DNA of 48,579 nucleotides, taken from Candidatus Angelobacter sp. GTDB taxonomy: Bacteria > Acidobacteriota > Terriglobia > Terriglobales > Acidobacteriaceae. A program made the translations under genes and the position numbers. Positions 23,525 to 41,096 of this stretch are shown piece after piece (positions within the stretch are counted from its first letter, which is position 1; every line of letters starts with the position of its first letter). The stretch lies in assembly GCA_036270475.1 (NCBI GenBank), contig DATBCN010000055.1, positions 1 through 48,579 on the forward strand, read 5' to 3'. A model generated the notes under the pieces. That model was not told where the DNA came from, ran no database searches, and was given only the letters and a program-made list of their open reading frames with translations.

Positions 23525-24756
23525 ACAAACTAGTGGTCATCACGGGTGTCGGACTTATTTCCAGGCTGGGAGACTCGTCTGCTCTGCTTCATCGGGACTT
23601 ATGCGCCGGATCAAATCGTCTGGATGAAATTACAGAATATGAAACACATGGTTTCGGTTCCCAGCCGGGAGGGAGTATTTCTGCGTTCGCACCTGAAACG
23701 TATCTGAGTGGCCGGGCTCTGAGGCCCTTGGATAGAACTGGGAGGCTCTTTGCGTCCGCTGCCAAGCTCGCTCTGGAAAGCAGCGGCTGGAGCGCCGGGT
23801 ATTTAGCCACCAACGATGTGGGAGTGGTGTTGGGCACAATGTTCGGCAGTATGCATACAATTTCGCAATTTGACCGGCAAGCTCTCATCGATGGCCCATC
23901 GTGCGTTAGTCCCATGGATTTTTCCAACACGGTCATCAATTCCGCAGCCGCACAAACTGCAATCTGGCACAAACTACGGGGGATCAATTCCACAATTGCT
24001 TCGGGCGCGACTTCAGGGCTTATGGCGATTGGGTATGCGGCTGATCTCATCCAGAGCGGACGTCAGTCCGCGGTGCTGGCTGGTGGAGCTGATGAATTCT
24101 GTTTTGAATCTTTTTGCGGTATGGCGCGCGCCGGACTTTTGCGTGGTTCCTCCAGCCAACGCGGATGCGCGGTGCCTTTTGATGAGCGGCGTACTGGTAT
24201 GACGTTAAGTGAGGCTGGAGCGCTGCTCGCGCTCGAAGACTGGGAATCGGCGAAAGCGCGCGGCGCGAATGTGCTGGGTGAAATACGCGGGCATGCCAAC
24301 GCCTACAATCCAGCAGGAAACCAGAATGGGCGAGGCCCAGACGCGATTATTCGCGCCATGCAGGGAGCGCTGGAGTCTGCCCGAATGTCGACTGGAGACA
24401 TCGACTGCATAAGCGCGGCTGCGAATGGGAGTCCCGTGGATGACAAGAATGAGGCGATGGCGATCCATGCAGTTTTCAATAGCCATGCGAACAGCGTTCC
24501 GCTCACGGCGATCAAATCAGTGCTTGGCGAAACTCTTGGCGCGGCCGGCGCATTACAGGCGATTGATTTTGTAGAGTCAATGCGAACGTCTTTGCTTCCT
24601 GGGATCGCTGGATTAGGAGAGGTTGATGAGGAAGCGGCGTCTTTGAACCTTTGCCGCCAGCCGACCCTGCTGAATGTGCGTTCCGCATTGATTAACAGTG
24701 TCGGTTTTGATGGCCACGCCTGCTCGCTCATTATTACAGCACCGCCGCAAGGATAA
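23521..24756 (+). CDS. Ketosynthase-like partner lacking the catalytic triad (KS-beta / chain-length-factor-like)
   Basis: 411 aa with a thiolase fold. The segment equivalent to TACxxG reads TIASGATSG with no Cys. The two His motifs read SAAANGSPVDD and KSVLGETLGAAG (His to Asn/Ala and to Glu). The ATGA overlap with the KS gene fits a heterodimer. Confidence 0.8.
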   Translation: MNKLVVITGVGLISRLGDSSALLHRDLCAGSNRLDEITEYETHGFGSQPGGSISAFAPETYLSGRALRPLDRTGRLFASAAKLALESSGWSAGYLATNDVGVVLGTMFGSMHTISQFDRQALIDGPSCVSPMDFSNTVINSAAAQTAIWHKLRGINSTIASGATSGLMAIGYAADLIQSGRQSAVLAGGADEFCFESFCGMARAGLLRGSSSQRGCAVPFDERRTGMTLSEAGALLALEDWESAKARGANVLGEIRGHANAYNPAGNQNGRGPDAIIRAMQGALESARMSTGDIDCISAAANGSPVDDKNEAMAIHAVFNSHANSVPLTAIKSVLGETLGAAGALQAIDFVESMRTSLLPGIAGLGEVDEEAASLNLCRQPTLLNVRSALINSVGFDGHACSLIITAPPQG

Positions 24757-24760
24757 TTTC

Positions 24761-25996
24761 ATGGGAGGAACTTTGTTTACCGTAAACGAACTGGCTTGCT
24801 CGCTTCTCGACCGCCATGGCCTCACGCCCCAATTGGTGCCACGGCTGGGCGCGGAAGCTTACGGGAAACCTGCCATCACCAAACGGCGTGAATGGATTGA
24901 AAACAAAACCGGGGGAAACCTTACACATGTCGGGTCTTACTCCGTTCCCAGCGAGCAGATGCGCGGCAACATTGAAAATCCGATTGGCGCAGTCCAAGTT
25001 CCTCTTGGAATTGCCGGCCCCCTGGCTATTCGAGGCGCCTATGCCCAGGGCATCTTTTATGTTCCCATGGCCACCACTGAAGGCGCTCTCGTCCGTTCAT
25101 ATGAACGCGGCATGGTTACGCTTACCCGGGCGGGCGGCGCCATCACGCGTGTTTACCAGGATGAAAACCGCGTATCGCCGGTTTTTCTTTTTAGCGGCGT
25201 GGCCTCTGCCCATGATTTTGCCAATCAGATAACTCAAGAGTTCAACCGAATCAAAGAAGAGGCTGAGTCGACCACGGCCCATGGAAAATTGCTCCGTCTG
25301 GATTGTGATCCCATCGGAAAAGAAGTGATAGTTACTTTCTGCTATTCCACGGCGGACGCTCACGGCATGAACATGATCGTTAAGGCCACTGAAAGGGCCT
25401 GCTGCTGGATCCTGAAAAATATGCATGCGCAGGATTTCTATTTATTCAGTGGACTGAGCTCTGAAAAAAGAGGCAGTGGGGCATTACTAAGTGGAGGAAA
25501 AGGCAAGAAAGTAATCGCGGGAGCAACGCTCTCTGCTGACTTGTTAAAAAACTATCTGCATACCACACCGGCACAGTTAGTGGACCTTTGGCACCATACC
25601 GTACTGGGGCATTTGCAAGGGAACGCAATAGGATACAACGCTCATTATGCAAATGGATTAGCGGCCATATTCATCGCCTGCGGACAAGACGTGGCCAATA
25701 TCCTGAACTCAGCGGTGGGAATAACCAATTTTGAATTGATGGATGATGGGCAAGCCTATGTAAGCGTAACACTGCCATCATTGACGGTTGGGACCGTAGG
25801 CGGTGGCACGGGCTCTGGCACAAGCTACGAATGTTTGCGAATGTTGGGGGCTGCGGGTAACGGTGGTGCGCTGAAGTTGGCGGAAATTGTGGCTGCCACG
25901 CTGCTTGCTGGAGAGATATCCATGGCTGCGGCAATTGGCAGCCATGAATTCACGCAGGCCCACGATAAATACGGACGTAATAAACCCGAGCCTTAA
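24761..25996 (+). CDS. Class I HMG-CoA reductase homologue (catalytic domain only, soluble)
   Basis: ATG 24761 has AAGGA 7 nt upstream. The ORF track extends it to 24698. Motifs are ENPIGAVQVPLGIAGPL, MATTEGALVRS, DAHGMNM and LTVGTVGGGTG. It starts 5 nt after the KS-beta stop. Confidence 0.85.
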   Translation: MGGTLFTVNELACSLLDRHGLTPQLVPRLGAEAYGKPAITKRREWIENKTGGNLTHVGSYSVPSEQMRGNIENPIGAVQVPLGIAGPLAIRGAYAQGIFYVPMATTEGALVRSYERGMVTLTRAGGAITRVYQDENRVSPVFLFSGVASAHDFANQITQEFNRIKEEAESTTAHGKLLRLDCDPIGKEVIVTFCYSTADAHGMNMIVKATERACCWILKNMHAQDFYLFSGLSSEKRGSGALLSGGKGKKVIAGATLSADLLKNYLHTTPAQLVDLWHHTVLGHLQGNAIGYNAHYANGLAAIFIACGQDVANILNSAVGITNFELMDDGQAYVSVTLPSLTVGTVGGGTGSGTSYECLRMLGAAGNGGALKLAEIVAATLLAGEISMAAAIGSHEFTQAHDKYGRNKPEP

Positions 25997-26071
25997 GTCT
26001 CGGCGAATTTCGCCTGCAATCTTATTTTCTGATCTCCTAGTTACATAGACTCACTCCAAAGGCAGAAATCT

Positions 26072-27109
26072 ATGTCACCTAATTCAGAGTTAGAGCCGAT
26101 CATCGCCAGCGGATACTCTGAAGGTCGCGCGCGATTTGGCGATTTAGGCTTGGATCCTGAGGTGTTCGCTAAACGCATTGAGGCCATCATCCAAAAACAT
26201 CTGGGGGCCAACCCACCCATGGAAGCATCTGTCAGCTTTGCGAAGAGCTTACACAGCCGAGATTTGTATCTGGCCACGGCATGCGCTCAACACAGCCTTT
26301 ATCCCGCTACAGATCCCGCGACTGGTGTTCCTTCAGAGCATGCCGGGCGGGCCTGGAAAATGCTGGAGTCAACGTATAGAGGATTTATCCGTGATCTTGC
26401 CCGCTATTTCTTTCGCAAAGGTTTTATTTCCCAGGATCTTGCTGACAACATTCTCGCTGATCTTTTTCTTCCTGATCGTTCCGGGACCAGCCGCATTGTG
26501 TCCTATGATGGCCGGAGCTCGTTAAGCACCTGGCTGAGAGTGGTGATTTCAAACCGTGCGATCAATGCCAAGCGTTGTAGCGCAACAATGCAAACTGTTG
26601 AAATCCTGGCGGACATACCGGATGAGCCTGCTCTGGAAAGAATTGACTCCGGTTTGAGGACGAAACGGTATCAGGAACCACTCAAGGATTCTTTGACATT
26701 GGCATGTCGGCGTTTGACTCTGCGTGAACGCCTGATCTTGCTTTGGCGATATGAAGATGGTTTGCAATTAGGGCAAATAGCGCGTTTATTGGACATTCAT
26801 CAGTCGAATGTAACCCGGCAGCTTGACCGGCTGCAAGGTAAGCTTCGTGAACATGTCATTGAGATCCTGTCGACGCGCCACGGGCTCAGTCTCGATGCGA
26901 TTGAAGAATGCTTGAAAGATATTGTAGAGAATCCGCAAACAGTGGCTATTCTGGAGTTCATCAAAGGTAAACAAGGCCCTTCACAGGCATTGCAGGCAAC
27001 GCTGCCTGTTCCGGGCGCAAGGCAGGGCAATACTTTTGCGGCAAAGCCACCGGAATCAGATCCCGGACGGGCCGAGTGCAACAATGGGCGATGGGGAAAA
27101 TATAAGTAG
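26072..27109 (+). CDS. Sigma-70 family (ECF-like) RNA polymerase sigma factor with N- and C-terminal extensions
   Basis: 345 aa. Region 4 is LTLRERLILLWRYEDGLQLGQIARLLDIHQSNVTRQLDRLQGKLRE. The region 2-like segment is STWLRVVISNRAINAKR. Confidence 0.7.
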   Translation: MSPNSELEPIIASGYSEGRARFGDLGLDPEVFAKRIEAIIQKHLGANPPMEASVSFAKSLHSRDLYLATACAQHSLYPATDPATGVPSEHAGRAWKMLESTYRGFIRDLARYFFRKGFISQDLADNILADLFLPDRSGTSRIVSYDGRSSLSTWLRVVISNRAINAKRCSATMQTVEILADIPDEPALERIDSGLRTKRYQEPLKDSLTLACRRLTLRERLILLWRYEDGLQLGQIARLLDIHQSNVTRQLDRLQGKLREHVIEILSTRHGLSLDAIEECLKDIVENPQTVAILEFIKGKQGPSQALQATLPVPGARQGNTFAAKPPESDPGRAECNNGRWGKYK

Positions 27110-27507
27110 TTGTGGAATGTCAGAAATACCCGTTTGGAATATATCTGCGTCCGGTGAATACAGCGGACCACCTATACAGCTACAGGTGGCGGGTCGTACT
27201 TCTTCCGCATTGCATAAAAAACATTCATCGCGTTAGCCAAAGTCAATATGGGCACGTATCCCTATATGGCCCAAAACGGAACGCAAGTATTATAAAAGCC
27301 AAAGCGGCAACCAAAAAAAACGACACATATCCTCTAAAGATAACAAGCCGTGCTATACTAGTATCATTTTGTATGTGGATTTGTGATTGTGGACTGTGCC
27401 CGAAACTCACAAAGTTCTCCAAATTGTGCCCAAGAGTAGCGCGTCTTGCAAGAATGTATTTCAGGGTAAGTCCCCGCTGGGCCAAACGATGATTTTAATC
27501 TCCCTCA

Positions 27508-27786
27508 ATGTTGCTTCTGGCGGAGAGGTTCGTGTTTCCAATGGAAATATTCTCGGGAATTGCCGGAGATGTTGGACCGAAATCTGGGAAGGCCAGATAT
27601 GTAGAGGCCACTCAAGGTCCGCATTTAAGCGATGAGGATGTTGCAGCGTTTGTTGACAGTAACCTTCTTGCCTGGCAGACAAGGGCGATGCTTTTGCACC
27701 TTACGCACTGTCCAAGATGTAGAAAGATCCTTAGCGAAGTTGTACTAAGTCAATCTGCTGTTCATAACCCAGATCCCCAGAAGTAG
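27508..27786 (+). CDS. Short soluble anti-sigma factor candidate (zf-HC2 / ZAS motif)
   Basis: 92 aa, or 81 aa from ATG 27541. LSDEDVAAFVDSNLLAWQTRAMLLHLTHCPRCRKIL matches the anti-sigma N-terminal domain with H-x3-C-x2-C. There is no TM segment. Confidence 0.5.
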   Translation: MLLLAERFVFPMEIFSGIAGDVGPKSGKARYVEATQGPHLSDEDVAAFVDSNLLAWQTRAMLLHLTHCPRCRKILSEVVLSQSAVHNPDPQK

Positions 27787-27934
27787 TTTTATTTTGTCCC
27801 GCCTGAGAATCATCTGAGCAAATCCCATTTACCCAACTGTCTAAGTGCAATGTAGCTACTTTTCCGTTCCGGTGTGGGGATTGCTCTCAGCGTTTGTGTT
27901 GGCGATCTTCTGAACCAGCAGGAGTGATTGTCCC

Positions 27935-29482
27935 GTGTCCAGACGTTTCCGCGGGTTGCGTGAAGACCCAGAAAGACGGTACGACTGTGTCATCATCGGG
28001 GCCGGAGTTGGCGGACTGCTAACCGCCAATCTCCTGGGCCGTTCTGGGCTGAAAGTCCTTTTGGTTGAGCAGCACTTCATGGTGGGCGGCTATTGCAGCA
28101 CATTCCGGCGAGGTGGATATACCTTTGATGCGGCTACCCATTTTTATCCTCTGCTAGGTAACCCAGCCACCATGACCGGTGCTTTATTGGCCGAGTTGGA
28201 TGTTACAACAGAATGGGTCAAGATGGACCCGGTGGATTCATTCCACTTCCCAGATGGCTCACGCTTCACGGTACCGGCCAAGTTTGACATCTATCTGGCA
28301 AGGCTCAAAGAGGAATTCCCTGAAGAGTCCGCGAACATCGACCGCTTTTTTACGCTCGTCCGAAAAACATACCTTTTGGGACTCATGCACTATTTCCGGC
28401 AGGTAGACACAAAGCGGATTGCCCCCTACCAGCATCTTACGATCCGCGATGTGCTGAATAAATATTTCCGCAGTGAAAAACTTAAGCTGGTGCTTACCGG
28501 TGACATCGGCCATTGGGGATCACCGCCATCCAAAACTTCTTTTGTTTTTGATTCCATGCTGCGTCTAGCCTATTTTTTGGGCAACTATTATCCCCGCGGT
28601 GGATCGCAAGTGTTTGTCGATGAGTTAGCACAGCGCTTTGAAGAAGCGGGTGGCCACATTCTGATGAACTCAACGGTAAAGCGGATACTCGTCCGCAATA
28701 ACACCGCGGTTGGGGTTGAAATCGAGACGGGAAGCGCTCGCAAACGGCTCTTAAAGCAGGTGATGGCAGGCATAGTCATTTCCAATGCTGATCTTCGGTT
28801 GACGTTGGAAGGGATGATCGGTGCGGAGTTTATTGATCCTGTCTACTTGGCCACGGTCCGCGAGATGCGCCCTACCCATGCCTGTTTTCTCACCCATTTA
28901 GGACTGAAAAATATCTCCCTTGATGAATTACGAAGAGCTGAAGGATATCACTGGAGTTCTTGGGATTCGGAAAATGTTGCAACACATGCATTCAAGGTGT
29001 TTCTACCGACCGGGTACGATCCCAGCCTCGCCCCGCCTGGTGGCCAGATCATCATTGTGCAGAAACTTACAGAGATTGACTATGGCTCCATGCAGGATTG
29101 GGCGATGCACAAGGCCGGGGTGGAAGCTTACATTATGTCTTCTTTGGAGAAATGTTTGCCGGGGATCGGAGGCAAGGTCGCCGTCAGATTGAGTGCCACT
29201 GCTCAAACATCCCATCGCTACACGCTGAATCACCATGGCGCCATGCTGGGATGGGCGATGTCTCCTGATCAATTGGGTGAGAAGAGGCCAGATATACAAA
29301 GCCCTTTCCGCAATTTGTATTTCATTGGGCACTGGACGAGACCTGGCGGCGGAATTACACCGGTGATGATTTCCGCGATGCAAGCAGTCAAGTTAATTCT
29401 TGGCGGCGAACCACAAGCCGGCCTTCCGATTGAAGTGGATCACTTGGCGCCAGAAACAAAAGAGGTTTTGCCGAGATTGTGA
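27935..29482 (+). CDS. FAD-dependent oxidoreductase, phytoene desaturase (CrtI)-like family
   Basis: 515 aa. The dinucleotide fold is YDCVIIGAGVGGLLTANLLGRSGLKVLLVEQHFMVGG. The C-terminal FIGHWTRPGGGI is typical of the CrtI/amine-oxidase family. The GTG start has AGGAG 10 nt upstream. Confidence 0.8.
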   Translation: MSRRFRGLREDPERRYDCVIIGAGVGGLLTANLLGRSGLKVLLVEQHFMVGGYCSTFRRGGYTFDAATHFYPLLGNPATMTGALLAELDVTTEWVKMDPVDSFHFPDGSRFTVPAKFDIYLARLKEEFPEESANIDRFFTLVRKTYLLGLMHYFRQVDTKRIAPYQHLTIRDVLNKYFRSEKLKLVLTGDIGHWGSPPSKTSFVFDSMLRLAYFLGNYYPRGGSQVFVDELAQRFEEAGGHILMNSTVKRILVRNNTAVGVEIETGSARKRLLKQVMAGIVISNADLRLTLEGMIGAEFIDPVYLATVREMRPTHACFLTHLGLKNISLDELRRAEGYHWSSWDSENVATHAFKVFLPTGYDPSLAPPGGQIIIVQKLTEIDYGSMQDWAMHKAGVEAYIMSSLEKCLPGIGGKVAVRLSATAQTSHRYTLNHHGAMLGWAMSPDQLGEKRPDIQSPFRNLYFIGHWTRPGGGITPVMISAMQAVKLILGGEPQAGLPIEVDHLAPETKEVLPRL

Positions 29483-31150
29483 ATGGCGGAGTTGTTGCAA
29501 AAACCCTTAGCGAGCCTATCTAAAGTGCTGCGGATAACAATACTCAGTACCGAAGGCAATATACCGGCAAGCAGTCTGGCAAAGGAGCTGAAAGCTACCG
29601 ACGAGAGAGCCAGTGTCGTCCTGCTGGAAGATAGCCATTGCGCAATTCAAACAAATCAGTCTGGCAGTTATCTTTATATTCCATCCTTGATAGATGCGGA
29701 TGCGATGGTGCCCGACTTGCGGGAAGCGGAGCGGGTCTTCCGCAATCTGGCGCCAGGGGAAAGCAGAAAAATCATTGTGCTATCCAGTGCGCTGATCTAT
29801 GGAACTGGCGCGGGCCGGCAGGCCCTGGTGGACGAAGATTATAGCCCGCCGCGGCGTAACGAGCAGGTCATTAGTAGCACCTGGGCTGCTTTGGAAAAGC
29901 TGGCATGTCAATATCTAGGCCAACAAAATAAGGTTACAATTCTGCGCCCCGTAACACTGGTACCTTCACAAGCGTGGATAAGCAGGATATTAACAGGCCG
30001 CTTCGCTCCAACTTTGCTTGGCTACGATGCCACCCTGCAGTTGCTCAGTCCCAGTGATTTGGCGGGCGCGGTTCGTTGCGTGCTTCTTCACGATTCTCCC
30101 GGGACTTTCAATGTTGCGCCTGATTGCGCTGTGCCTACGCATGCCGCGATCCGGATTGCTGGAGCCTCGCGTATTTCCTTGCCACGGGCCTTGCGACGGC
30201 TGCACAAACAAGCTGAGGTCCTCGATTATCTGAGATATCCGTGGACGGTCTCCAATCAAAAGATCAAAAGTGTTCTGGGGTTTAAGCCTGCAAAGTCGAG
30301 TCTTGCTGCCCTGCTAGAAGCTTGCCACCGCCGTTGTGATGTTGTGCCGGAGCCGCGCTTTGATGAATTCGGAATGGACCCCGACTACATCAGATTTTAC
30401 GGAAAGACCCTGTTCAAGTTTCTTTCTGACGTTTACTGGCGCATTGAAGAACAAGGTGTGGAACACATACCTGCAAGCGGCCGCGGAGTGATGGTAGGGA
30501 TGCATCGCGGTTTTATGCCTTGGGATGGTGTGATGGCATTGTATCTGCTGGTGCAGAGAATCGGCCGCTTTCCTCGGTTCCTGATTCATCCCGGCCTATT
30601 AAAATTTCCATTTCTTGCGAATTTTATGACCAAGCTTGGCGGTGTCATTGCATGCCAGGCGAGCGCCGACCGCATTCTGGAAAGCGACGAACTGCTAGGC
30701 GTTTTTCCCGAGGGGATAGAAGGAGCATTTACTCCTTACCGTGACGCCTATAAGCTGCAGAGCTTTGGGCGTAACGCCTTCGTTAAAATGGCTCTTTTGC
30801 ACCGGGCGCCAATCATTCCCTTTGTGACAGTAGGCAGCGCAGAAATTTTCCCGATCCTGGGAAAGATTGAATCCAAATTCTGGCAGCGGTATGCCGAGTG
30901 GCCTTTTATTCCGCTCACGCCAACCTTTCCACTCTTACCATTGCCCTTGCCGGCTAAATGGCACACAGTCTTTCTTCCCCCTTTGCATGTAGAAAAAATT
31001 TATGCGCCTGAAGCTGCCCGAGACCGCGCGGTGGTGAAGGCCATCAGCCTTGAGGTGCGTACGCGCATGCAGCAGGCCATTGACGAGATGCTGGGCCGAC
31101 GGCGATCCATATTCTGGGGTTCGGTGTTCAAACCGGAGAGCTGCGCATGA
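29483..31150 (+). CDS. Fusion protein: degenerate extended-SDR (epimerase/dehydratase-like) domain + lysophospholipid/glycerol-phosphate acyltransferase (PlsC-type) domain
   Basis: 555 aa, starting immediately after the previous stop. The N-terminal half has the epimerase fold pattern (VLSSALIYG, FNVAPD, VLGFKP). It lacks GxxGxxG (ILSTEGNIPAS) and YxxxK (STWAALEKL). The C-terminal half carries the acyltransferase blocks GMHRGFMPWD and FPEGIEG. Confidence 0.7.
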   Translation: MAELLQKPLASLSKVLRITILSTEGNIPASSLAKELKATDERASVVLLEDSHCAIQTNQSGSYLYIPSLIDADAMVPDLREAERVFRNLAPGESRKIIVLSSALIYGTGAGRQALVDEDYSPPRRNEQVISSTWAALEKLACQYLGQQNKVTILRPVTLVPSQAWISRILTGRFAPTLLGYDATLQLLSPSDLAGAVRCVLLHDSPGTFNVAPDCAVPTHAAIRIAGASRISLPRALRRLHKQAEVLDYLRYPWTVSNQKIKSVLGFKPAKSSLAALLEACHRRCDVVPEPRFDEFGMDPDYIRFYGKTLFKFLSDVYWRIEEQGVEHIPASGRGVMVGMHRGFMPWDGVMALYLLVQRIGRFPRFLIHPGLLKFPFLANFMTKLGGVIACQASADRILESDELLGVFPEGIEGAFTPYRDAYKLQSFGRNAFVKMALLHRAPIIPFVTVGSAEIFPILGKIESKFWQRYAEWPFIPLTPTFPLLPLPLPAKWHTVFLPPLHVEKIYAPEAARDRAVVKAISLEVRTRMQQAIDEMLGRRRSIFWGSVFKPESCA

Positions 31151-32787
31151 GGGCGATTACGAGTGCGCGCCGATTGGTGCGTATTTTTAGAATCGTAGGC
31201 TGGCATGCGGTCAGCCATGCGTTGCACTCGCCTTTAAGGCATTGGCCAAAGCCGGCAGCAAAGGTCCTTGGTGAAGAAGTGTCTGGACCGGTCAGACTTC
31301 GGCTCGCGATCGAGGAGATTGGCGGAACGTTCATTAAGTTTGGCCAGATGCTTGCGATGCAATCTGATCTGTTGCCATTGGAATATTGCAGGGTCCTGTT
31401 CACATTGTTCGACCAGGTACCGCCATTTAGCTACCAGGAAGTGGAGCGAATGTTTGTAGAGGACTTAGGACAAAAGCCTGCACAGATATTTACCTCCTTT
31501 GATTTAACTCCAATCGCAACTGGTTCCATAGGCCAGGTACATATTGCGATGCTGGGAAAGCAGAAAGTCGCTGTGAAGGTGAGGCGTCCGACAATCGCCC
31601 GTGATTTCGCGGCTGACATTGTGTCGATGAAGATCGTCTCCGGGCTGGTGAAGCTGCTTCGCATCAAATGGCTCTATTGGGTCGTAGCTCCGATTGAGGA
31701 ATTCATTGCCTGGACCCAGGAGGAGCTCGATTTCAGGCGGGAAGCGCACTACATTGATGAATTAGGCCGCAATGCCAGGGACAACCGGTTTGAGAAAGTC
31801 CCAACCGTTTTTTGGAGCTGCACAACGGCGCGAATCCTGACAGCAGAATTTCTGGATGGGAGCACGATCTCTGAGTATTTACGTGATCGCGATTCTGGCA
31901 TAGTCCGTCTGCCGAAAGATTTTAACGCCGAGCTTTTTGCCGGCCGGCTTATTGACAATTTCCTGGGCGATGCTTTTCGCCATGGGATGTTCCACGCGGA
32001 CCTTCATCCTGGCAATTTGATGATCCTGGGGGGAAATGTTGTGGGATATGTCGATTTTGGAATTTCAGGCGTCCTTAGCCGTTATTCGCGTAGGCATTTG
32101 ATCGCGATGACCCTCGCCTATGCACAGGGAAACCTGGATGCCATGTGCGAATCGTTCTTTCGCATTTCCACATTCGCAAGTAATGCTAATCCCGCCGGCT
32201 TTCGGCAGGGAATCGTTGCTGCGTCCGCAGGGTGGTATGGAAGCGGCGCCGGTGAATCGAGGCTGCGTAAAAGCATTACTTCCATCATGCTTGATCTGCT
32301 GATCATTTCCAAAAATAACGGCGTATGGCCGCAGCGGGACGTGATCAAATACATCCGTTCCGCCATTGCCCTGGATGGCTTGATCAAGACTTTTGCTCCG
32401 GGCGTGGACGTAGGCCGCCATCTAGAACAGGCATGCGTACGGCACATCAAGTGGGATTCAGTCAGGAACATCACTTCCTCCAGTGTTGTGATTGGTTCGT
32501 TAGGTGGACTGACTCGTTTGGCCCGCGATGGCTTCCTTCGGGCGTTCGCGATGTTGGGGCAGTACGGTAAAAGACTGCCCAAAGTGCCTTTGCGCCTAAC
32601 CGGTGGTGTTACGAAACGGCGGCTACACGCTGCCCTGCAGTTTGCCTGGATAGTGTTTTGTCTTAGGTTGTCTGCCATGGCGGACAGGAAGGGGTTGGCG
32701 ATCTCTCACATTCATCTAGCCGGCCTGCTGTTGCCGTTCGCCATTTCAATCGTTATGCAGCGGGCGCTCCAACATGTGAGGGCTTAA
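31147..32787 (+). CDS. UbiB/ABC1 (AarF-domain) atypical kinase with C-terminal TM segments
   Basis: 546 aa with an ATGA overlap with the previous gene. Motifs are FIKFGQMLAMQSDLLPLEY, GSIGQVHIA, VAVKVRRP, FHADLHPGN and VDFG. Confidence 0.85.
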   Translation: MRAITSARRLVRIFRIVGWHAVSHALHSPLRHWPKPAAKVLGEEVSGPVRLRLAIEEIGGTFIKFGQMLAMQSDLLPLEYCRVLFTLFDQVPPFSYQEVERMFVEDLGQKPAQIFTSFDLTPIATGSIGQVHIAMLGKQKVAVKVRRPTIARDFAADIVSMKIVSGLVKLLRIKWLYWVVAPIEEFIAWTQEELDFRREAHYIDELGRNARDNRFEKVPTVFWSCTTARILTAEFLDGSTISEYLRDRDSGIVRLPKDFNAELFAGRLIDNFLGDAFRHGMFHADLHPGNLMILGGNVVGYVDFGISGVLSRYSRRHLIAMTLAYAQGNLDAMCESFFRISTFASNANPAGFRQGIVAASAGWYGSGAGESRLRKSITSIMLDLLIISKNNGVWPQRDVIKYIRSAIALDGLIKTFAPGVDVGRHLEQACVRHIKWDSVRNITSSSVVIGSLGGLTRLARDGFLRAFAMLGQYGKRLPKVPLRLTGGVTKRRLHAALQFAWIVFCLRLSAMADRKGLAISHIHLAGLLLPFAISIVMQRALQHVRA

Positions 32788-32798
32788 CCGTAGGCGAA

Positions 32799-34415
32799 AT
32801 GGCAGGCGCTGGTAGTCCGGTAAGCCAAATCGAGCGGAAAGGGAAACAGGCGCGAACACGAATGCTCCAAAGCAGGGAACAATACAGGCCGATTAACAGG
32901 CATAGTGGGATGGGCGTGTCTGGTCTTGCCCACCAAGCCAAAGAGGAAACGGTTGAGCAACGGGCAGCGGACCTCCGGCGGCTTCTGCAGGAAAGCGGCC
33001 CACTATTCTCAAGTTTCGCGCTTTATCTTTCTTCCAGGATTGATCTGTTACCCGCCGAGTATTGCCGCGAGTTAGCTTGTGTAGCTGACTCCTCGCCAGC
33101 GCGCTCTCTCTTGGATGTGGAGCGGGAGATGCTGGCTGGATTGGGTGGCATATTCCATGGGATCTTCAGAGCGTTTGAGCCAGTGCCATTCAGGGTAAGT
33201 TTATTGGACCAGACTCATGCTGCGATATTAGCCAACGGCGATAAAGTCACGGTCTGCTTCCTTCGTCCGGAGTACGCAGTTATTGGCAGCGCAAATCAGA
33301 TTGTTTCGCTCATCCGCGAGAAGCCATTTTGTGCTTTCGGCCCTGAGTTGGCGGATGACGCTATGCTCACGGACTTTGCTGCTGCATTGCAGAGGTCGGT
33401 CAACTTGCAAATCAGAGGGCAGGCGGTGGAAGGGCGTGCGAATCCGGGAGAGTTCTCAAACAGAAAACCGGTTTACAAGGTCTATCACGAACTTTCTGGA
33501 AAAAGGGTTTTAACTGCCGCAGCCGTTGGAGAAAACACCCTGTGTCAACTCATATGCGAACAACAAAGAAACTTGCCACTCTTAGCGCGCCACGTCTGCC
33601 GTGCATGGCTCAGGGAAGCGCTGTATGGCCGGTATGTCCCTGTGGATCCAAGGCCAGGAAACATCATTGTGTTGGGGCAGACAGATTTTATCTTCGCGGG
33701 CAATGAGTTTGCAGAGGTCCCATTGCGCGCAAGAGAGAACCTCCGTCATTACCTGTCTGCGACCCTTGAGGACGACCCTGACAGAGCGGCGCTACATTTG
33801 CTGCAAGAGATGCATCCGCCAAGAGGCGGTTTGAAAGACGCTGGTGAATTCCGAAGCCGGTTCAGGCAGGCAGCCTATTTTGGCGCGCTTGAGCCTGTCT
33901 TGGGGACAGACACAAATGCCCTGGCGCAACTTATCTTCCAACACTGGAAAACCGCTCTCAGTTTTGGGTACGCACCAACGCCGCATCTGCTGGTTTTCTA
34001 TAGAGGATTATTTTCCGTGGCACGAGTGGCCCGTGAATTAGCTCCAGCGGAAGACCCGTTGCGCGACGGCACGGAGGAACTGGATGCCGACATGATGTTT
34101 GAACAGCTCACCGACATTACTGGAACCACCTACTGGTCTGAGAGCGCGGACAAGTTCGCTACGGCAATGATCAACCTTCCGCAGACCCTGGATGAAGCGT
34201 TAAACCGCGGAAGTAGCCTAGAGCTTGACAACCATTTGGCGCCCGCTCCGGAGCATCCCGCGAGCAAACGCGCAAAGCCCATTGCGATGCTGGTGCTTTT
34301 TATCTCGGCAATCATCTTCATTTTTCAAACTGGTACAAATGGCTGGATGGAGCAAACCGTGGTGCTTGCGCTGATGCTCGCGGGGTTAGCCGGCTTACAA
34401 ATGTTGGTAGATTGA
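32799..34415 (+). CDS. Degenerate UbiB/ABC1-like paralogue (probable pseudokinase) with C-terminal TM segments
   Basis: 538 aa with the same domain order. The KxGQ box reads FSSFALYLSSRIDLLPAEY. The VAVKVxRP lysine is Cys (VTVCFLRP). HADLHPGN reads VPVDPRPGN. DFG reads FAGNEF. Confidence 0.7.
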   Translation: MAGAGSPVSQIERKGKQARTRMLQSREQYRPINRHSGMGVSGLAHQAKEETVEQRAADLRRLLQESGPLFSSFALYLSSRIDLLPAEYCRELACVADSSPARSLLDVEREMLAGLGGIFHGIFRAFEPVPFRVSLLDQTHAAILANGDKVTVCFLRPEYAVIGSANQIVSLIREKPFCAFGPELADDAMLTDFAAALQRSVNLQIRGQAVEGRANPGEFSNRKPVYKVYHELSGKRVLTAAAVGENTLCQLICEQQRNLPLLARHVCRAWLREALYGRYVPVDPRPGNIIVLGQTDFIFAGNEFAEVPLRARENLRHYLSATLEDDPDRAALHLLQEMHPPRGGLKDAGEFRSRFRQAAYFGALEPVLGTDTNALAQLIFQHWKTALSFGYAPTPHLLVFYRGLFSVARVARELAPAEDPLRDGTEELDADMMFEQLTDITGTTYWSESADKFATAMINLPQTLDEALNRGSSLELDNHLAPAPEHPASKRAKPIAMLVLFISAIIFIFQTGTNGWMEQTVVLALMLAGLAGLQMLVD

Positions 34416-34468
34416 AGCTGCATCGTTGCTGCCGAAGTTAGAACTTCAGCACCAAGGGAGGCGTAAGA

Positions 34469-35941
34469 ATGGATACGGGTAGGTTTTCCAAGGAAAATAA
34501 TGTGCCCCTGCAAACAGTCGTTGCCGACTGGGCTCCAGGAATTGAGATAGCGTTCCCCCGAGAATTTGGAGAAAGTGATCGCCCCGTACATTGCGTTCAA
34601 GGTGAAGTCCCAGATTTCGTGCGCGGAACGTATTACCTTAATGGTCCCGCAAAATTTGCAGTAGGTGATCTTGCTTATCAGAATTGGCTGGATGGCGACG
34701 GCATGGTCTGCGCTTTGAAGTTTGGCGGACAAGGCATACAGCTCAGCAATCGATACGTGCGGAGCACGAAATACAAGGCCGAAAAAGAACAGAGCGCTCC
34801 AGTATTTCGTGCGTTTGGGACCAATTTCCCTGGCAGCCGTTTGAATCTCCTGAACAATGGGCTTGAGTCGCCGGTGAACGTGAGCGTGTACAGGCTCGGA
34901 GCCGATCTGCTGGCATTTGGGGAGCAAGGTCTTCCTTGGATTCTTGATCCGCATACGCTGGAAACACGGGGCCAGTTCACAGCACAAGGACGTTTGAATG
35001 ATGCCAGCCCTTTTTCCGCTCATCCTAAATTCGATTCTGCTTCGCAAGAAATGTTTAATTTCGGGATCTTCTTCTCGGCGCAAACCCCGCGGCTCTATTT
35101 CTATTGCTTTGCGCCGGAGGGAATGCGATATCGCAAGGCCATACCACTGCCATATCCATGTTCCGTTCACGATTTTGCCTTGAGCACACGGTTCGCCGTC
35201 TTCTATTTGAGTCCGTATTTGTTTGACATTCAGGGATTTCTACAGCACGGCCATACTGTGCTTGAATCACTCCACTGGGCACCGGAGCAAGGGTCAATGT
35301 TGGTTGTGGCAGACCGCACGAATGGGGAAGTGGTTGCTTCAGTTCCGCTTGGCCAACGCTATTGCCTGCACCTAATGAATGCATTTGAGGAAGATGGTTC
35401 TCTTGTGGTGGATGTCTTGGAATTTGACGCGCCAGTCTATGGCGAGTATCAACCGCTTCATGGCATGTTTCCAAATGTCGCCAAGGGCGGCCCGGTGCGC
35501 TTTGTAATCGACTTGCAGAACAAGGCACTGGCGGACCGCAATCCCATGGAGTGTTTCTCTTCGCCTGACTTTCCGTGCATCGATCCATGCCGCATGATGC
35601 AACCCTATGAAGAGTTTTGGCTTTTGGGAATCTCGTCGTCGGGACGGACGGGGCGCAAATTCTTTGATCAGCTATTGCACGGCAACTGGAACCGCTCAAC
35701 CATGGAAGTTTATCAGTCCCCGCCGATGCGTTATCTGGGCGGCGAACCTGTTCTTATCAGCCCGCCGGGTTCTGAGGAATCTGTGGTGATCTGCCAGGAG
35801 GTGGATGTAGTGGAACGGACCAGTTACTTCCTGCTCTTTGATGCGAAATGCATCATGAACGGCCCAATCGCTCGCATTGCGACAGGACAGCTCATGTATT
35901 GTGGCTTTCACGCCATATTCCATCCTGAGAACAAAAAGTGA
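34469..35941 (+). CDS. Carotenoid cleavage oxygenase family (RPE65/CCD/lignostilbene dioxygenase-type) non-haem iron dioxygenase
   Basis: 490 aa. The SD GGGAGG is upstream. The N-terminal VPDFVRGTYYLNGP and four His contexts (AHPKFD, SVHDFA, LHLMNAFE, GFHAIF) fit the four-His iron site. Confidence 0.85.
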   Translation: MDTGRFSKENNVPLQTVVADWAPGIEIAFPREFGESDRPVHCVQGEVPDFVRGTYYLNGPAKFAVGDLAYQNWLDGDGMVCALKFGGQGIQLSNRYVRSTKYKAEKEQSAPVFRAFGTNFPGSRLNLLNNGLESPVNVSVYRLGADLLAFGEQGLPWILDPHTLETRGQFTAQGRLNDASPFSAHPKFDSASQEMFNFGIFFSAQTPRLYFYCFAPEGMRYRKAIPLPYPCSVHDFALSTRFAVFYLSPYLFDIQGFLQHGHTVLESLHWAPEQGSMLVVADRTNGEVVASVPLGQRYCLHLMNAFEEDGSLVVDVLEFDAPVYGEYQPLHGMFPNVAKGGPVRFVIDLQNKALADRNPMECFSSPDFPCIDPCRMMQPYEEFWLLGISSSGRTGRKFFDQLLHGNWNRSTMEVYQSPPMRYLGGEPVLISPPGSEESVVICQEVDVVERTSYFLLFDAKCIMNGPIARIATGQLMYCGFHAIFHPENKK

Positions 35942-35943
35942 GA

Positions 35944-35973
35944 GGGCCGGGGCAAGCGCAATGCTTGCCCGGC
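35944..35973 (+). terminator. GC-rich hairpin directly after the dioxygenase stop (terminator-like, no clear U-tract)
   Basis: GGCCGGGGCAAGC-gcaat-GCTTGCCCGGCC forms a 12-bp stem with one bulged G, 3 nt after TGA 35939-35941. Confidence 0.4.
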
Positions 35974-36103
35974 CTTGCTGCAAATCACGACCCACTTCTT
36001 GTCTATGAAAGCAGATATCGAATGCTTTCAGCGGTCTGCTCTGCAATGCAGGAGCAACCCGGAGCATGAGTGCTCCGGCCCGTCGATCGCTCAGGAGACG
36101 CAG

Positions 36104-36502
36104 ATGCCTATGCGACAACTTGCTAAATCTACATTGAGTCTGGGCTGGGCCCTTTCACTACTCGGGGCAAAACAGGCGTATGACCTTATGTCCGGTGAGC
36201 ATCAGGACACTGGAGATCCCATTGGGCGGGTCACGCAGACCGTGGTGGGCCAACTGGATGAATCGATGAAACGCATCCATCGCACCACCAGCACGGTGGA
36301 GTCGCGTATGGTCGACATGACATTTTCCTTTATGAATCCCGGCCAATGGTTGAGCCCAAAAGCGTGGAGCACATGGAATCCAATGGCAACGTGCGGCCGT
36401 GCCGCAGAGGGAAGCGGCGAGTCTGATGCAGGAACCGAACAGGACCCAAGTTCCGGCTCCGGAACATCTCAAGATGCAACCCAGAGTGCTGCTTCTGAAT
36501 GA
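36104..36502 (+). CDS. Hypothetical protein (132 aa) with an acidic Ser/Gly-rich tail
   Basis: ATG 36104 has the SD AGGAGA 5 nt upstream. The ORF track extends it to 35975. No recognisable family. Confidence 0.4.
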   Translation: MPMRQLAKSTLSLGWALSLLGAKQAYDLMSGEHQDTGDPIGRVTQTVVGQLDESMKRIHRTTSTVESRMVDMTFSFMNPGQWLSPKAWSTWNPMATCGRAAEGSGESDAGTEQDPSSGSGTSQDATQSAASE

Positions 36503-38864: not shown

Positions 38865-41096
38865 TCAGTCAATGTTCATTTGTGCCAGTAGCGCCCGATA
38901 ACGGGGATCTGAGCGATAAGGACCAAAATACGGTTCCGCGTCCATGCGCGTGAGATAAGAGTCCCGCTCTTTTGCGGCATCGTTTAGAGATGCAAACATT
39001 TTTTCGACGTCGCCAACGGCTGCATAATACACGCTAAAGCTGGCCGGCGAGACAAACCGCTTCGTGCCAGTTTCCCTGATTTCTGCTATCAGTTTTTCTG
39101 CCTGCTCGCGTTTGCCCGTCCGCGCATAAGCGGCCGCAAGAAAGCCGCCGGCCAACGTGAAAGCAGGCGCGAGCTTGACGGCGGTTTCCAGGCTGGCGAT
39201 GGATTGCTGCAACGATCCTTTTTGCGCCAGAGCCAGTCCCAGCGCAAAATGCACAAGCCAGTAGTCAGGATATATTTCCACGGACTTTGTGGCATGCCTG
39301 ATGGCGCTGTCAAATTTGTGCTGGCAATAGAGGGCAAATGCCAGGCCGAAGTGGACCATCATCGAGAGTGGATCAGTCTCCAGGGCGCGTCTGTATTCAT
39401 CTTCTGCTTCCTGAAAGCGCTTTAGAGGCGTAAGGAAGTAAAGTGCATAGCGTACGCGAACCAGTGGAGGAACGGGATTGACGGCCATAGCTGCTTGCAG
39501 GTGATGCTCCGCCGCTTTCCAGTCATAGTTAACGGCGCCAGAGATTACTCCCAGCACGCTGTGTGCCTCACTCAATGTCTGGTCAAGAGCCAGGGCCTTT
39601 TCCGCGGCGGCCCGCGCCAGCGGCGCCATCTCGACCATCCGTCTGATGCTGAGGGCGCCAATGCCATGATAAAAAACTGCCAAGCCGGCATGTGCGGGAG
39701 CATGATCCGGATCATGCTGCAGAGCTTGTTCAAAAGATTCCTTGGCTTTCGCCAGGCTTTCTGGCGTGTAGCGCTGATACCAATACAAACCTTTTAGGTA
39801 ACTCTGAAAAGCCTCAATGTTTTCCGGCCGGCGTTGAGGAGGGGCAAGCCGGACCTTTAGAACGGTGGCAATCGCCTGGGATATGTCGTCCTGCACGGCG
39901 AAAATATCCGTCATCTCGCGATCATATCGATCAGACCAGAGCTGCGATTCGTCAGCCACTCGAATGAGCTGAGCGGTAACGCGGACATGATTGCCAGATC
40001 TGCGGACGCTGCCTTCCAAAACAGTTCCCACTCTCAGCCGGTCACCAATGCTGCGCAAGTCCTGCTCCTGGCCGCGAAATGTAAATGCTGATGTGCGGGC
40101 GATTACCTTCAAATCCGATGCCTTGGCGAGAGCGTTGATGATCTCCTCAGCCAATCCATCGCTGAAATATTCATTTTCCTTGTCCGGGCTCAGGTTCACA
40201 AAGGGCAGCACGGCAATTGACCGGGGCTCGCCAGAGGCGGAGTTTGAGGAAGCCTCCACCAAGTCCTGCCTGACCTCGACCATGGTCTGAAACCTTTGAT
40301 CTGGGTCCTTGCGCAAGCAGCGTGCAATGTGCCGTTCCAATGAATATGGAATTGCTACCCTGAGATCACGCAATGAACGGGGTTCTTCCCGCAAAATGGA
40401 TGTCAGGACGGAAATCCATGACTCCCCACCGAAGGCGCGTTGCCCTGACAACATCTCATACAGCACCAATCCATAGGAAAAAATGTCAGACCGGGAGTCC
40501 TGTTTTCGTCCTTCTATCTGCTCGGGAGACATATAAGCAGGCGTTCCAGCAAATGTAGTTGTGCCTGTTGACTGGGTTGCGATCGCGATTGCTTTTGTGA
40601 GCGCTGGTTCTGTCAATTTTGCGAGACCAAAATCAAGCAGCTTTGCACGCCCATCTTCCGTCACCATGATATTTGCCGGTTTTAAGTCGCGATGAATAAT
40701 GCCTGCGGCATGGGCAGCGGAAAGCGCATCAACAATCTCAGCCGCGTACTTAACCGCGTCTTTCAAGGGCAGCCCATTGCCACTGTTCACCTTTTCCAGA
40801 GTCGCACCTGTCAGGAATTCCATGGCAATAAAGCAGGCGCCATCGTGCTCGGAAATATCATGGATGGTAACGATGTTGGGATGGTTCAGCCTGGATGCCG
40901 CCTGGGCTTCCACCAGAAACATGCGCTTTCTTTCAGCGTCAGCAACTTTGTCTGGCGGAAGCGTCTTGAGTGCGATGACACGCTGAAGCCTGGTGTCACG
41001 TGCCTTGTAGACTTCTCCCATTCCTCCCGCTCCAAGAAAGGAAAGGATTTCATACTGACCGATTCGAGTCCCCGCGGCAAAGGCCATGAGCTTCAC
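38865..41096 (-). CDS. Ser/Thr protein kinase with C-terminal TPR-repeat region
   Basis: 743 aa. Kinase motifs are GAGGMGEVYKA, IALK, HRDLKPANIM, DFGLAK and GTPAYMSPE. A central region is followed by multiple TPR-like repeats. Confidence 0.9.
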   Translation of the reverse strand: MKLMAFAAGTRIGQYEILSFLGAGGMGEVYKARDTRLQRVIALKTLPPDKVADAERKRMFLVEAQAASRLNHPNIVTIHDISEHDGACFIAMEFLTGATLEKVNSGNGLPLKDAVKYAAEIVDALSAAHAAGIIHRDLKPANIMVTEDGRAKLLDFGLAKLTEPALTKAIAIATQSTGTTTFAGTPAYMSPEQIEGRKQDSRSDIFSYGLVLYEMLSGQRAFGGESWISVLTSILREEPRSLRDLRVAIPYSLERHIARCLRKDPDQRFQTMVEVRQDLVEASSNSASGEPRSIAVLPFVNLSPDKENEYFSDGLAEEIINALAKASDLKVIARTSAFTFRGQEQDLRSIGDRLRVGTVLEGSVRRSGNHVRVTAQLIRVADESQLWSDRYDREMTDIFAVQDDISQAIATVLKVRLAPPQRRPENIEAFQSYLKGLYWYQRYTPESLAKAKESFEQALQHDPDHAPAHAGLAVFYHGIGALSIRRMVEMAPLARAAAEKALALDQTLSEAHSVLGVISGAVNYDWKAAEHHLQAAMAVNPVPPLVRVRYALYFLTPLKRFQEAEDEYRRALETDPLSMMVHFGLAFALYCQHKFDSAIRHATKSVEIYPDYWLVHFALGLALAQKGSLQQSIASLETAVKLAPAFTLAGGFLAAAYARTGKREQAEKLIAEIRETGTKRFVSPASFSVYYAAVGDVEKMFASLNDAAKERDSYLTRMDAEPYFGPYRSDPRYRALLAQMNID

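Follow-up and report, generated by a model that had tools for sequence, protein, structure and literature searches.

What could an uncultured soil bacterium want with a flavoenzyme resembling the carotenoid desaturases, a lipid acyltransferase, two UbiB-type proteins and a dioxygenase of the carotenoid-cleaving kind, all encoded side by side? This is the question raised by positions 27935-35941 of contig DATBCN010000055.1 (assembly GCA_036270475.1) from Candidatus Angelobacter sp., of which we have analysed 48,579 nucleotides, a stretch that we refer to throughout as the window. Our best answer, to which we would give roughly an even chance, is that a stress-regulated pathway makes a non-isoprenoid acyl or alcohol lipid, and that these five genes are the half of it that tailors, esterifies and handles the product. 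Far firmer is the framework for that answer, since ten or more genes very probably form one functional cluster, which spans at least 22014-36502 together with a gene pair at 41420-44308 (encoding m245 and a GMC-family oxidoreductase). The domain calls of the initial annotation, on which we build here, are right in fold, but three of them need correcting.

Why should these genes be thought to belong together? When the window proteins were compared by tblastn with 80 loci (referred to below by their L numbers) drawn from five acidobacterial classes, the same arrangement kept returning: ketosynthase (KS), chain-length-factor-like protein (CLF), HMG-CoA-reductase-like enzyme (HMGR), flavoenzyme (PDH), in some cases an acyl carrier protein (ACP), then acyltransferase, UbiB and pseudo-UbiB, with order and orientation conserved over all five classes at 45-90% protein identity. 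Of the 57 loci whose sequence reaches 8 kb or more upstream of the acyltransferase gene, 45 have PDH, 44 have HMGR and 43 have CLF, the KS often lying just past the end of the flank; downstream, UbiB and pseudo-UbiB each occur in 33 of the 54 loci that reach 7 kb or more, and the order acyltransferase-UbiB-pseudo-UbiB recurs in 33 of these 54. The five genes do behave as one unit, as had been proposed. An ACP homologue is found in 32 of the 80 loci, and in Vicinamibacterales and related loci it sits between PDH and acyltransferase. Outside Terriglobia the genes run KS-CLF-HMGR-flavoenzyme with only 8-50 nt between HMGR and PDH and, because these two genes abut there, what appear in the window to be two operons are best regarded as one cluster split by an inserted sigma/anti-sigma pair. 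The initial annotation had suspected a link between the five genes and the upstream KS/CLF/HMGR operon and had named a lack of synteny as the outcome that would refute it; in relatives, both operons are syntenic.

About 200 carriers were found in a one-genome-per-species scan, and they fall within Terriglobia (Ca. Angelobacter and Ca. Sulfotelmatobacter), Blastocatellia/Pyrinomonadaceae, Vicinamibacterales, Thermoanaerobaculia and Holophagales. No cultured carrier is among them, all named hits in that scan and in two acyltransferase searches being metagenome-assembled genomes (MAGs). The Terriglobia soil MAG L001 is collinear with the window all the way from the histidine kinase to the Ser/Thr kinase gene, its proteins being mostly 74-92% identical to those of the window, with pseudo-UbiB at 68% and the small protein o175 at 59%. 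A few carrier contigs come from bins that bear the name of another group (L057 Nitrospinota, L038 Verrucomicrobiia, L017 Rugosimonospora, and L035 and L045 Clostridia), and L057 has the complete KS-CLF-HMGR-PDH-acyltransferase-UbiB-pseudo-UbiB set, reflecting either mis-binning or transfer.

What, then, of the five genes themselves? A mechanical list of open reading frames (ORFs) reproduces all five exactly, every one on the plus strand, and the junctions described for them were confirmed by the sequence at each start: 0 nt (a TGA followed directly by ATG), a 4-nt ATGA overlap, 11 nt and 53 nt. Genes 1 and 5 are preceded by GGAG-type ribosome-binding sites, and the position of the GTG start of gene 1 is kept in 10 related loci. 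This layout suggests that the five genes are co-transcribed. The hairpin that was supposed to close the unit is real (folding energy -27.8 kcal/mol, z -3.2, matched by 0 of 200 shuffles), but in functional terms the unit does not really end there, for o175, encoded just beyond it, is conserved as part of the cluster and has a separate copy of the regulatory motif described below. The hairpin itself has no T-tract and was not called in the terminator scan; L001 and L002, the loci most closely related to the window, have a different hairpin at this point, and the more distant L005, L011 and L014 have none. Rfam and tRNA scans of the window gave no match, and scans for sigma-70 promoter and terminator consensus sequences came out at or under shuffle expectation.

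How is the cluster controlled? Aligning the regions upstream of the flavoenzyme gene from 10 Terriglobia loci revealed an invariant pair of elements, GCAAA(T)...TGTCT(A), and in the form GCAAAT-N15-18-GTCT this motif occurs at six sites in the window against 0.48 expected, a number reached in 0 of 100 shuffles. The copy upstream of the ACP gene lies at the same position in L001, L003, L004, L005, L011 and L051, and that upstream of o175 does so in L001, L005, L011 and L014. The same promoter-like motif thus precedes both the ACP and the PDH operons, which bears out the earlier idea that the two are functionally tied. It also bears on the most deflationary explanation of the locus, that these genes are merely adjacent and their tight junctions a product of compact genome packing: short intergenic gaps are of course common in bacteria, but the conservation of the block in order and orientation over five classes, and the more than tenfold enrichment of a shared motif, make mere adjacency very improbable indeed. 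Five of the six sites stand upstream of transcription units, namely those of the response regulator, ACP, flavoenzyme, o175 and m245. The motif layout would fit the -35 and -10 elements of an ECF-type promoter, and these five units probably constitute an ECF-sigma regulon.

A candidate for the sigma factor in question is encoded within the cluster, and its gene is found only in Terriglobia loci (L001-L005, L010, L011, L014 and L051), between HMGR and PDH. Close behind it lies the gene for a candidate zinc-finger anti-sigma factor, which scores 21.4 bits against zf-HC2, just below the 22.2 cut-off, and is conserved in 9 loci, again in Terriglobia only. GC content drops to 0.49 over this sigma/anti-sigma stretch. 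Another ORF, at 27112-27492, was considered as the anti-sigma gene and rejected as probably spurious, having no homologue in the loci and no Pfam match. With no motif of its own and a start 75 nt after HMGR, the sigma gene would depend on the ACP promoter for its transcription, which is the autoregulation usual for ECF sigma factors. The small size of the anti-sigma candidate makes a redox or thiol signal plausible, and the combination of an ECF sigma factor with a zinc-finger anti-sigma partner suggests that, in Terriglobia, the pathway may be induced by redox or envelope stress. A second layer may be older, because a sensor histidine kinase and LuxR-type response regulator, encoded just upstream of the ACP gene, have orthologues (50-61% identity) next to KS and co-directional with it in the Terriglobia loci L001 and L002, and divergent beside KS in Vicinamibacterales and others (L042, L048, L055, L060, L073 and L075, at about 2300-4500); this two-component pair may be the ancestral cluster regulator.

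We turn now to the upstream half of the cluster. Its KS, in which the Cys-His-His triad is intact and which is thus predicted to be active, matches PDB entry 9s5h_B at 484 bits, compared with about 300 bits for ordinary FabF structures, and its second-best solved relative is the KS of the ishigamide highly reducing type II polyketide synthase (6kxd, 324 bits). The CLF-like partner has Ala/Ala/Glu in place of the Cys/His/His triad (in two orthologues from other loci, Ser or Pro stands where the Cys would be) and matches 9s5h_C at 245 bits compared with about 165 bits for FabF; the dedicated ACP reaches 51 bits with its PDB match, 7e42. Entries 9s5h and 9s5i bear the generic name '3-oxoacyl-ACP synthase', and no paper naming 9S5H turned up in the literature. 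A database search with 9s5h_B, however, gives Brocadiales proteins alone as its closest relatives, the top cluster representative being 95% identical. From these relatives and from a 2026 preprint that reports the crystal structure of anammox FabF2/FabFmut, a KS/CLF-like pair that decarboxylates malonyl-ACP (bioRxiv 10.64898/2026.05.19.726425), we infer that 9s5h/9s5i are very probably the amxFabF2/amxFabFmut heterodimer.

The fourth gene of the upstream half introduces a rival that has to be taken seriously, even though we rate it as rather unlikely: that this is a true mevalonate-forming HMGR, and that carotenoids or prenyl-quinones, synthesised by genes elsewhere in the genome, are what the other enzymes modify, cleave, esterify and traffic. 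All of the catalytic residues are indeed in place, E559, K691, D767 and H866 being kept in 36 of 36 orthologues, and the enzyme matches an archaeal HMGR (PDB 6hr7) at 305 bits over the full domain; against TIGR00533 it scores 326.3 bits, under the 441.8 cut-off. What speaks against mevalonate is the HMG-binding pocket, where the 36-sequence alignment has D690E and the change from STNRGC to SYERGM in the 588-591 segment in every member, K692R in 34 of 36, and DA(Q/H)G in place of DAMG. In the HMMER alignment of the window protein, moreover, a His is aligned at the position of K735, the residue that salt-bridges the HMG carboxylate (residue roles are those of human HMGR). Taken together, this pattern of pocket changes suggests that the enzyme may have changed its substrate.

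Is gene 1, then, a carotenoid desaturase? The initial annotation called it CrtI-like, and the fold is right: Pfam finds Amino_oxidase (residues 26-489) and NAD_binding_8, the FAD-binding Rossmann motif GAGVGG occupies residues 22-27, and the amine-oxidase fold is present in full length. But its affinities lie with the PDH of the anammox Cluster I locus rather than with true carotenoid desaturases, since it is 34% identical to that protein over 482 residues, again full length (286 bits in pairwise BLASTP), compared with only 77-85 bits to the CrtI and CrtD structures in the PDB, and against TIGR02734 (crtI_fam) it scores 148.5 bits, under the 238.1 cut-off. In an exhaustive search with gene 1, the representative nearest the anammox PDH ranks 17th of 11794, and the matches ranked above it are mostly fragments of orthologues. 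On this evidence of homology, we would assign gene 1 to the anammox PDH subfamily of the CrtI-superfamily FAD enzymes. When the PDH of Kuenenia stuttgartiensis, kuste3607, was tried in place of CrtI, it did not support the synthesis of lycopene (PMC4790861). Both this failure and the status of the anammox PDH as nearest relative with a characterised context back the earlier suggestion that a non-isoprenoid chain is the likelier substrate, and both count against the remodelling of carotenoids or prenyl-quinones. So does the company that the gene keeps, for it is built into the ACP/KS/CLF operon in most classes. Domain scans of the window ORFs likewise confirmed that there is no crtB, crtE or cyclase gene, and none of these, nor HMG-CoA synthase or mevalonate kinase, is among the conserved neighbour families of the 80 loci.

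Gene 2 was described as a fusion of a short-chain dehydrogenase/reductase (SDR) with an acyltransferase, and here both folds stand but the SDR half proves catalytically degenerate. The protein consists of a pseudo-SDR (about residues 17-290), an LPLAT/DGAT-like acyltransferase (about 320-450) and a conserved Pro-rich C-terminal segment. Its acyltransferase half matches PF01553 at 40.3 bits against a cut-off of 23 and retains, as invariant residues, H341 and D348 (an HX6D rather than HX4D motif) and F408-P-E-G411. The SDR half goes unseen by Pfam at normal thresholds (Epimerase, E=0.019), yet in the AlphaFold model of the protein (mean pLDDT 71.6) it adopts an extended-SDR fold, for which Foldseek returns 3m2p (E 9e-12, TM 0.61) and, as top matches, only NDP-sugar epimerases or reductases. 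It has no Gly-rich motif (GxxGxxG), nor any conserved Gly in the first beta-alpha turn, and in 17 of 17 sequences YxxxK is replaced by an invariant W134...E138, the SSALIYG stretch being kept. Judged by these residues, the SDR half is not a reductase. There are more than 1400 homologues of gene 2, and all of the hits that bear an organism name are from Acidobacteriota; the acyltransferase family profile has no match among PDB sequences or in NCBIfam. The match of gene 2 to DAGAT is weak to marginal, which lends something to the isoprenoid alternative, phytyl-ester synthases having a similar match. Tandem duplicates of the pseudo-SDR::acyltransferase occur in some Blastocatellia and Holophagales loci (L023 10001-13327; L027, L046 and L050), and in other MAGs a second copy lies on a separate contig that lacks the cluster, L004 and L012 being one such assembly.

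A fusion of this kind might also call to mind ether lipids, subdivision 4 Acidobacteria being known for them, and the initial annotation did raise such a route. In its fuller form, a reductase-made fatty alcohol would be channelled into alkyl-glycerol lipids through the acyltransferase fusion, which, if true, would be relevant to the origin of ether-bound lipids in Acidobacteria; an alcohol could come from the HMGR-like enzyme. The architecture does mimic that of Myxococcus xanthus MXAN_1675 and of the C-terminal half of ElbD, where a reductase fold (FAR-like in MXAN_1675) precedes a glycerolipid acyltransferase in the same chain (PMC9131029). Where the two part company is in the acidobacterial reductase fold, which has lost the Gly nucleotide-binding motif and the Tyr/Lys pair, and in the neighbours, which are wholly different: neither alkyl-DHAP synthase (AGPS), nor PlsA/Ger, nor an ElbD-type CoA-ligase-ACP module is among the annotated conserved neighbour families, and an AMP-binding domain and AGPS are missing from the window ORFs scanned as well as from those families. 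Membership of the Elb ether-lipid system was dropped on these differences in cluster content (PMC9131029). No correlation with known ether-lipid producers can be drawn, because no named cultured acidobacterium figures among the listed carriers, and overall we find an ether-lipid route quite improbable.

With genes 3 and 4 we come to what had been called a UbiB kinase pair, a description that fits the first protein and needs amending for the second. Gene 3 encodes a canonical UbiB-family protein (Pfam ABC1, 185 bits), in which KxGQ, the A-rich loop, the Lys, HxDxHPxN and DFG are invariant in 32 of 32 orthologues, although it falls under the NCBIfam UbiB equivalog cut-off (251 against 487.55). 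Gene 4, by contrast, is a conserved pseudo-enzyme, of which the ABC1 fold alone remains (49 bits): KxGQ is lost in 33 of 33 sequences, the catalytic-loop His in 32 of 33 and the DFG Asp in 30 of 33, and the catalytic Lys is kept in 13 of 33 and is a Cys in the window. Both proteins have hydrophobic tails, that of gene 3 being C-terminal. The UbiB family is generally tied to prenyl-lipid homeostasis, and this too can be counted for the isoprenoid alternative. In 14 loci a redoxin of AhpC/TSA (thiol-peroxidase) type is encoded between UbiB and pseudo-UbiB (for example, L021 16078-16608 and L023 16807-17544), accompanied there by an unassigned protein of 445-451 aa. Other neighbours are a 616-aa protein resembling FAD monooxygenases and halogenases (14 loci) and an alpha/beta hydrolase (9 loci).

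Gene 5 was correctly recognised as a four-His dioxygenase of the carotenoid-cleavage type. It matches Pfam RPE65 at 297.5 bits against a cut-off of 27, and the iron-ligand histidines H185, H234, H301 and H481, together with the second-shell glutamates E152 and E426, are invariant in 17 of 17 orthologues. The best PDB match is the Synechocystis apocarotenoid oxygenase (141 bits), which favours the isoprenoid alternative. Apocarotenoid, carotenoid and lignostilbene enzymes are all at much the same distance from the protein, and it lies under every NCBIfam equivalog cut-off (at best 142 against 650). As a part of the operon the dioxygenase is present in the window, but it is an accessory one, absent or elsewhere in about two thirds of loci: it is found downstream of the acyltransferase in 17 of 54 loci and anywhere in 15 of the 44 loci with both flanks, and its position varies. 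For remodelling of carotenoids or prenyl-quinones, absence of this enzyme from most loci is a further difficulty.

The requirement of four-His dioxygenases, as a family, for conjugated C=C substrates brings us to a sub-case of our preferred reading that we consider unlikely, namely that the product is a lipid-anchored polyene pigment or antioxidant, analogous to aryl polyenes, flexirubin or ishigamide. The scheme, which has little chance of being right in detail, would have KS/CLF work with FabG and FabZ but without enoyl reduction to give a conjugated polyenoyl-ACP, which the acyltransferase anchors and the dioxygenase turns over. It can draw on the place of the ishigamide KS as next-best solved relative after 9s5h, on a CLF that, like polyene CLFs, is without the catalytic triad, and on the fit of both the ECF/zinc-finger anti-sigma control and the neighbouring redoxin to a role in oxidative stress. 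Set against these are conserved neighbours that include no dedicated ketoreductase or dehydratase, no aryl starter-unit genes, no LolA-like protein and no aryl-polyene exporter, as well as an HMGR-like reductase left without an obvious role. In addition, the anammox homologues favour short saturated C6-C8 probes (bioRxiv 10.64898/2026.05.19.726425).

Does the cluster end with the dioxygenase? Probably not. The small protein o175 has no Pfam match and is 30-40% identical to a protein of 162-176 aa encoded after UbiB in Blastocatellia and other loci, and m245 has paralogues, 40-56% identical and in two or three tandem copies, directly after pseudo-UbiB in the Blastocatellia loci L029 and L030. 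Downstream of m245 is the gene for the GMC-family oxidoreductase, which has a 200-aa N-terminal extension and a homologue, 67% identical, at the end of L030; in the window this pair lies about 5.5 kb downstream of the dioxygenase gene, on the opposite strand. The positions of all of these elements are collected below.

Table 1. Positions in the window of the cluster genes, regulatory genes, motif copies and hairpin.
Feature	Position	Strand	Basis or remark
Sensor histidine kinase, putative cluster regulator	19096-20550	+	HisKA_3 + HATPase_c (Pfam)
Motif GCAAAT-N15-GTCT	20649-20673	+	upstream of response regulator
LuxR-type response regulator	20869-21561	+	Response_reg + GerE (Pfam), synteny
Motif GCAAAT-N15-GTCT	21868-21892	+	122 nt upstream of ACP gene
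Dedicated ACP	22014-22283	+	89 aa, DSL phosphopantetheine site, ORF translation
KS, FabF2-type, predicted active	22280-23524	+	Pfam, NCBIfam
CLF-like partner	23521-24756	+	alignment, PDB match
Class I HMG-CoA-reductase-like NAD(P)H reductase	24698-25996	+	Pfam 353 bits; true start probably downstream of 24756
ECF-type sigma factor	26072-27109	+	345 aa, Pfam Sigma70_r4_2, TIGR02937
Zinc-finger (HxxxCxxC) anti-sigma candidate	27508-27786	+	92 aa, ORF translation
Motif GCAAAT-N15-GTCT	27818-27842	+	93 nt upstream of gene 1
Gene 1, CrtI-superfamily FAD enzyme	27935-29482	+	515 aa, GTG start
Gene 2, pseudo-SDR::acyltransferase	29483-31150	+	555 aa
Gene 3, canonical UbiB/ABC1-family atypical kinase or ATPase	31147-32787	+	546 aa
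Gene 4, pseudo-UbiB paralogue	32799-34415	+	538 aa
Gene 5, RPE65-type four-His non-haem iron dioxygenase	34469-35941	+	490 aa
Stable hairpin between dioxygenase stop codon and next promoter-like motif	35944-35973	+	folding energy
Motif GCAAAT-N15-GTCT	35980-36004	+	upstream of o175
o175, small conserved protein	36104-36502	+	listed from 35975; start probably ATG 36104
GMC-family FAD oxidoreductase, alcohol-oxidising type	41420-43510	-	Pfam GMC_oxred_N/C; downstream of m245
m245, probable regulon member	43571-44308	-	245 aa; motif directly upstream
Motif GCAAAT-N15-GTCT	44310-44334	-	directly upstream of m245
Motif with N18 spacing	44928-44955	-	inside ORF; may be chance

How might these parts work together in a non-isoprenoid acyl or alcohol lipid pathway? 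By homology to the anammox enzymes, the KS/CLF heterodimer would prime by decarboxylating malonyl-ACP and elongate a chain on the dedicated ACP, with ketoreductase and dehydratase borrowed from the housekeeping complement, since the cluster has none of its own. The PDH-like flavoenzyme may then add or shift a C=C bond in this acyl chain rather than in a carotenoid, and the HMGR-like enzyme could reduce a thioester to a primary alcohol, which the GMC oxidoreductase might interconvert with the aldehyde. The acyltransferase would couple an acyl part to an alcohol (or lyso-lipid) part, with the dead SDR domain acting as a module for binding or docking, and UbiB and pseudo-UbiB may mobilise the hydrophobic product or a precursor in the membrane. 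Where it is present, the dioxygenase would cleave conjugated C=C bonds to aldehydes. A link to stress finds support in the redoxin gene that lies between the two UbiB genes.

There is, of course, a good deal that pulls the other way. Proteins of the UbiB family, HMGR and carotenoid-cleavage dioxygenases are classically tied to isoprenoids, and the best solved relatives of the dioxygenase cleave apocarotenoids; the HMGR-like enzyme, about 50% identical to archaeal 6hr7 by eye in the alignment, may simply make mevalonate. The absence of ketoreductase, dehydratase and enoyl reductase genes from the cluster leaves the chain chemistry undefined, and even in anammox bacteria the homologous Cluster I core has only a putative function. 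Nor is the anammox link exclusive, close as it is, because the PDH subfamily is a large one (885 representative clusters at E<1e-30). Because the acyltransferase served as bait for the 80 loci, the conservation of this gene cannot count as a separate line of evidence, and that the motif is recognised by the cluster-encoded ECF sigma factor is something that we infer. Finally, the sequencing runs that hold the window sequence are all soil metagenome DNA, with no RNA run among them.

Why does this matter? Acidobacteriota rank with the most abundant bacteria of soils, and palaeoclimate proxies are founded on the unusual lipids that they make. Most of their lipid genes remain unassigned. The boldest version of our proposal, which we find possible while expecting it to fail more often than succeed, is of a phylum-wide, redox-regulated pathway in uncultured Acidobacteriota, in which a ladderane-cluster KS/CLF/PDH core has been combined with a neofunctionalised HMGR-like thioester reductase and a UbiB/pseudo-UbiB pair to make membrane or storage lipids of a class not seen before, such as esters of unsaturated alkanols or diols. 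Were it true, it would open a route to learning what amxFabF and PDH do outside anammox bacteria, and it would provide the first HMGR homologue acting outside mevalonate synthesis. The cluster is linked by homology to the only candidate set of ladderane genes, which is hard to study because anammox bacteria are genetically intractable, and a relative without the radical-SAM and FabZ genes separates the role of the KS/CLF/PDH core from ladderane-specific features. Enzyme repurposing can, in addition, be tested in three cases here, those of the remodelled HMGR pocket, the dead SDR domain and the pairing of UbiB with pseudo-UbiB, and the shared ECF-type motif furnishes a simple handle for inducing the pathway.

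Some neighbouring genes deserve a brief mention. In Blastocatellia two or four FG-GAP/ASPIC-UnbV proteins are encoded between flavoenzyme and acyltransferase (L021-L043, about 4600-9800; for example, L023 4671-9734), and several Terriglobia loci have a gene for an 878-aa relative of these on the upstream side of the cluster (L010 10-2646). In the window itself, 11013-15016 encodes a class III lanthipeptide-synthetase-like protein (RamC_N, kinase and LanC-like, 896 aa) followed by a second LanC-like protein (459 aa), the two being flanked by genes for MacB/FtsX permeases and sigma-54 activators. On the minus strand are the genes for a Ser/Thr protein kinase with TPR repeats (38865-41096), which L001 and L002 likewise have next to the cluster, and a 1167-aa protein (44400-47903) with weak ABM and GDSL-like matches only.

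How, finally, does the cluster compare with systems that are already known? Our literature searches found no published description of it, and 'ladderane' calls of antiSMASH type in soil bacteria have been mentioned as uncharacterised (PMC7298704). Its closest counterpart, which the initial annotation had missed, is the anammox Cluster I, KustE3603-3608, a set of putative ladderane lipid genes comprising amxACP, amxFabZ, amxFabF2, amxFabFmut, PDH and a B12 radical-SAM gene, which we fetched as locus L081. The two share an order that begins with ACP, KS and CLF and runs on to PDH, with the KS 53%, the triad-less CLF 36% and the PDH 34% identical, and a single heterodimer, 9s5h, is the best PDB match of both KS and CLF. 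They differ in that the window ACP is only weakly similar to that of L081, and in that the acidobacterial cluster adds an HMGR-like reductase, a pseudo-SDR::acyltransferase, UbiB and pseudo-UbiB and sometimes a dioxygenase. A tblastn search with the L081 proteins returned no amxFabZ or B12 radical-SAM homologue in the 80 acidobacterial loci, and ladderane formation is therefore not to be expected; 'ladderane producer' was accordingly rejected as a label.

The Iga11/Iga12 and ApeO/ApeC pairs of highly reducing type II polyketide and aryl-polyene synthesis likewise combine a stand-alone KS with an inactive CLF and a dedicated ACP, and the LPLAT-type acyltransferase of the acidobacterial cluster could anchor the product. 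Yet the acidobacterial KS is nearer to amxFabF2 than to Iga11, and a dedicated ketoreductase/dehydratase, starter-unit enzymes and export genes are all missing from its conserved neighbours. With the class I HMGR of Methanothermococcus thermolithotrophicus (6hr7) the reductase shares the catalytic Glu, Lys, Asp and His, but not the residues at HMG-contact positions; its gene lies in an ACP/KS/CLF operon, and further mevalonate genes are missing from the vicinity. The plant plastoglobule, with its ABC1K1/K3, CCD4, PES1/2 and flavin dehydrogenase, had been offered as a parallel, and we would reduce this to an analogy of domain types: ABC1/UbiB proteins, a carotenoid-cleavage dioxygenase, a DGAT/LPLAT-like acyltransferase and a flavoenzyme do occur together in both, with no orthology implied, but in the acidobacterial set the second ABC1 protein is a pseudo-enzyme, the flavoenzyme is of PDH type and the link is to fatty-acid-type synthesis rather than to prenyl lipids. 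The parts all come from known families, therefore, and what is new is their combination, with a remodelled HMGR, a dead SDR domain and a pseudo-UbiB partner.

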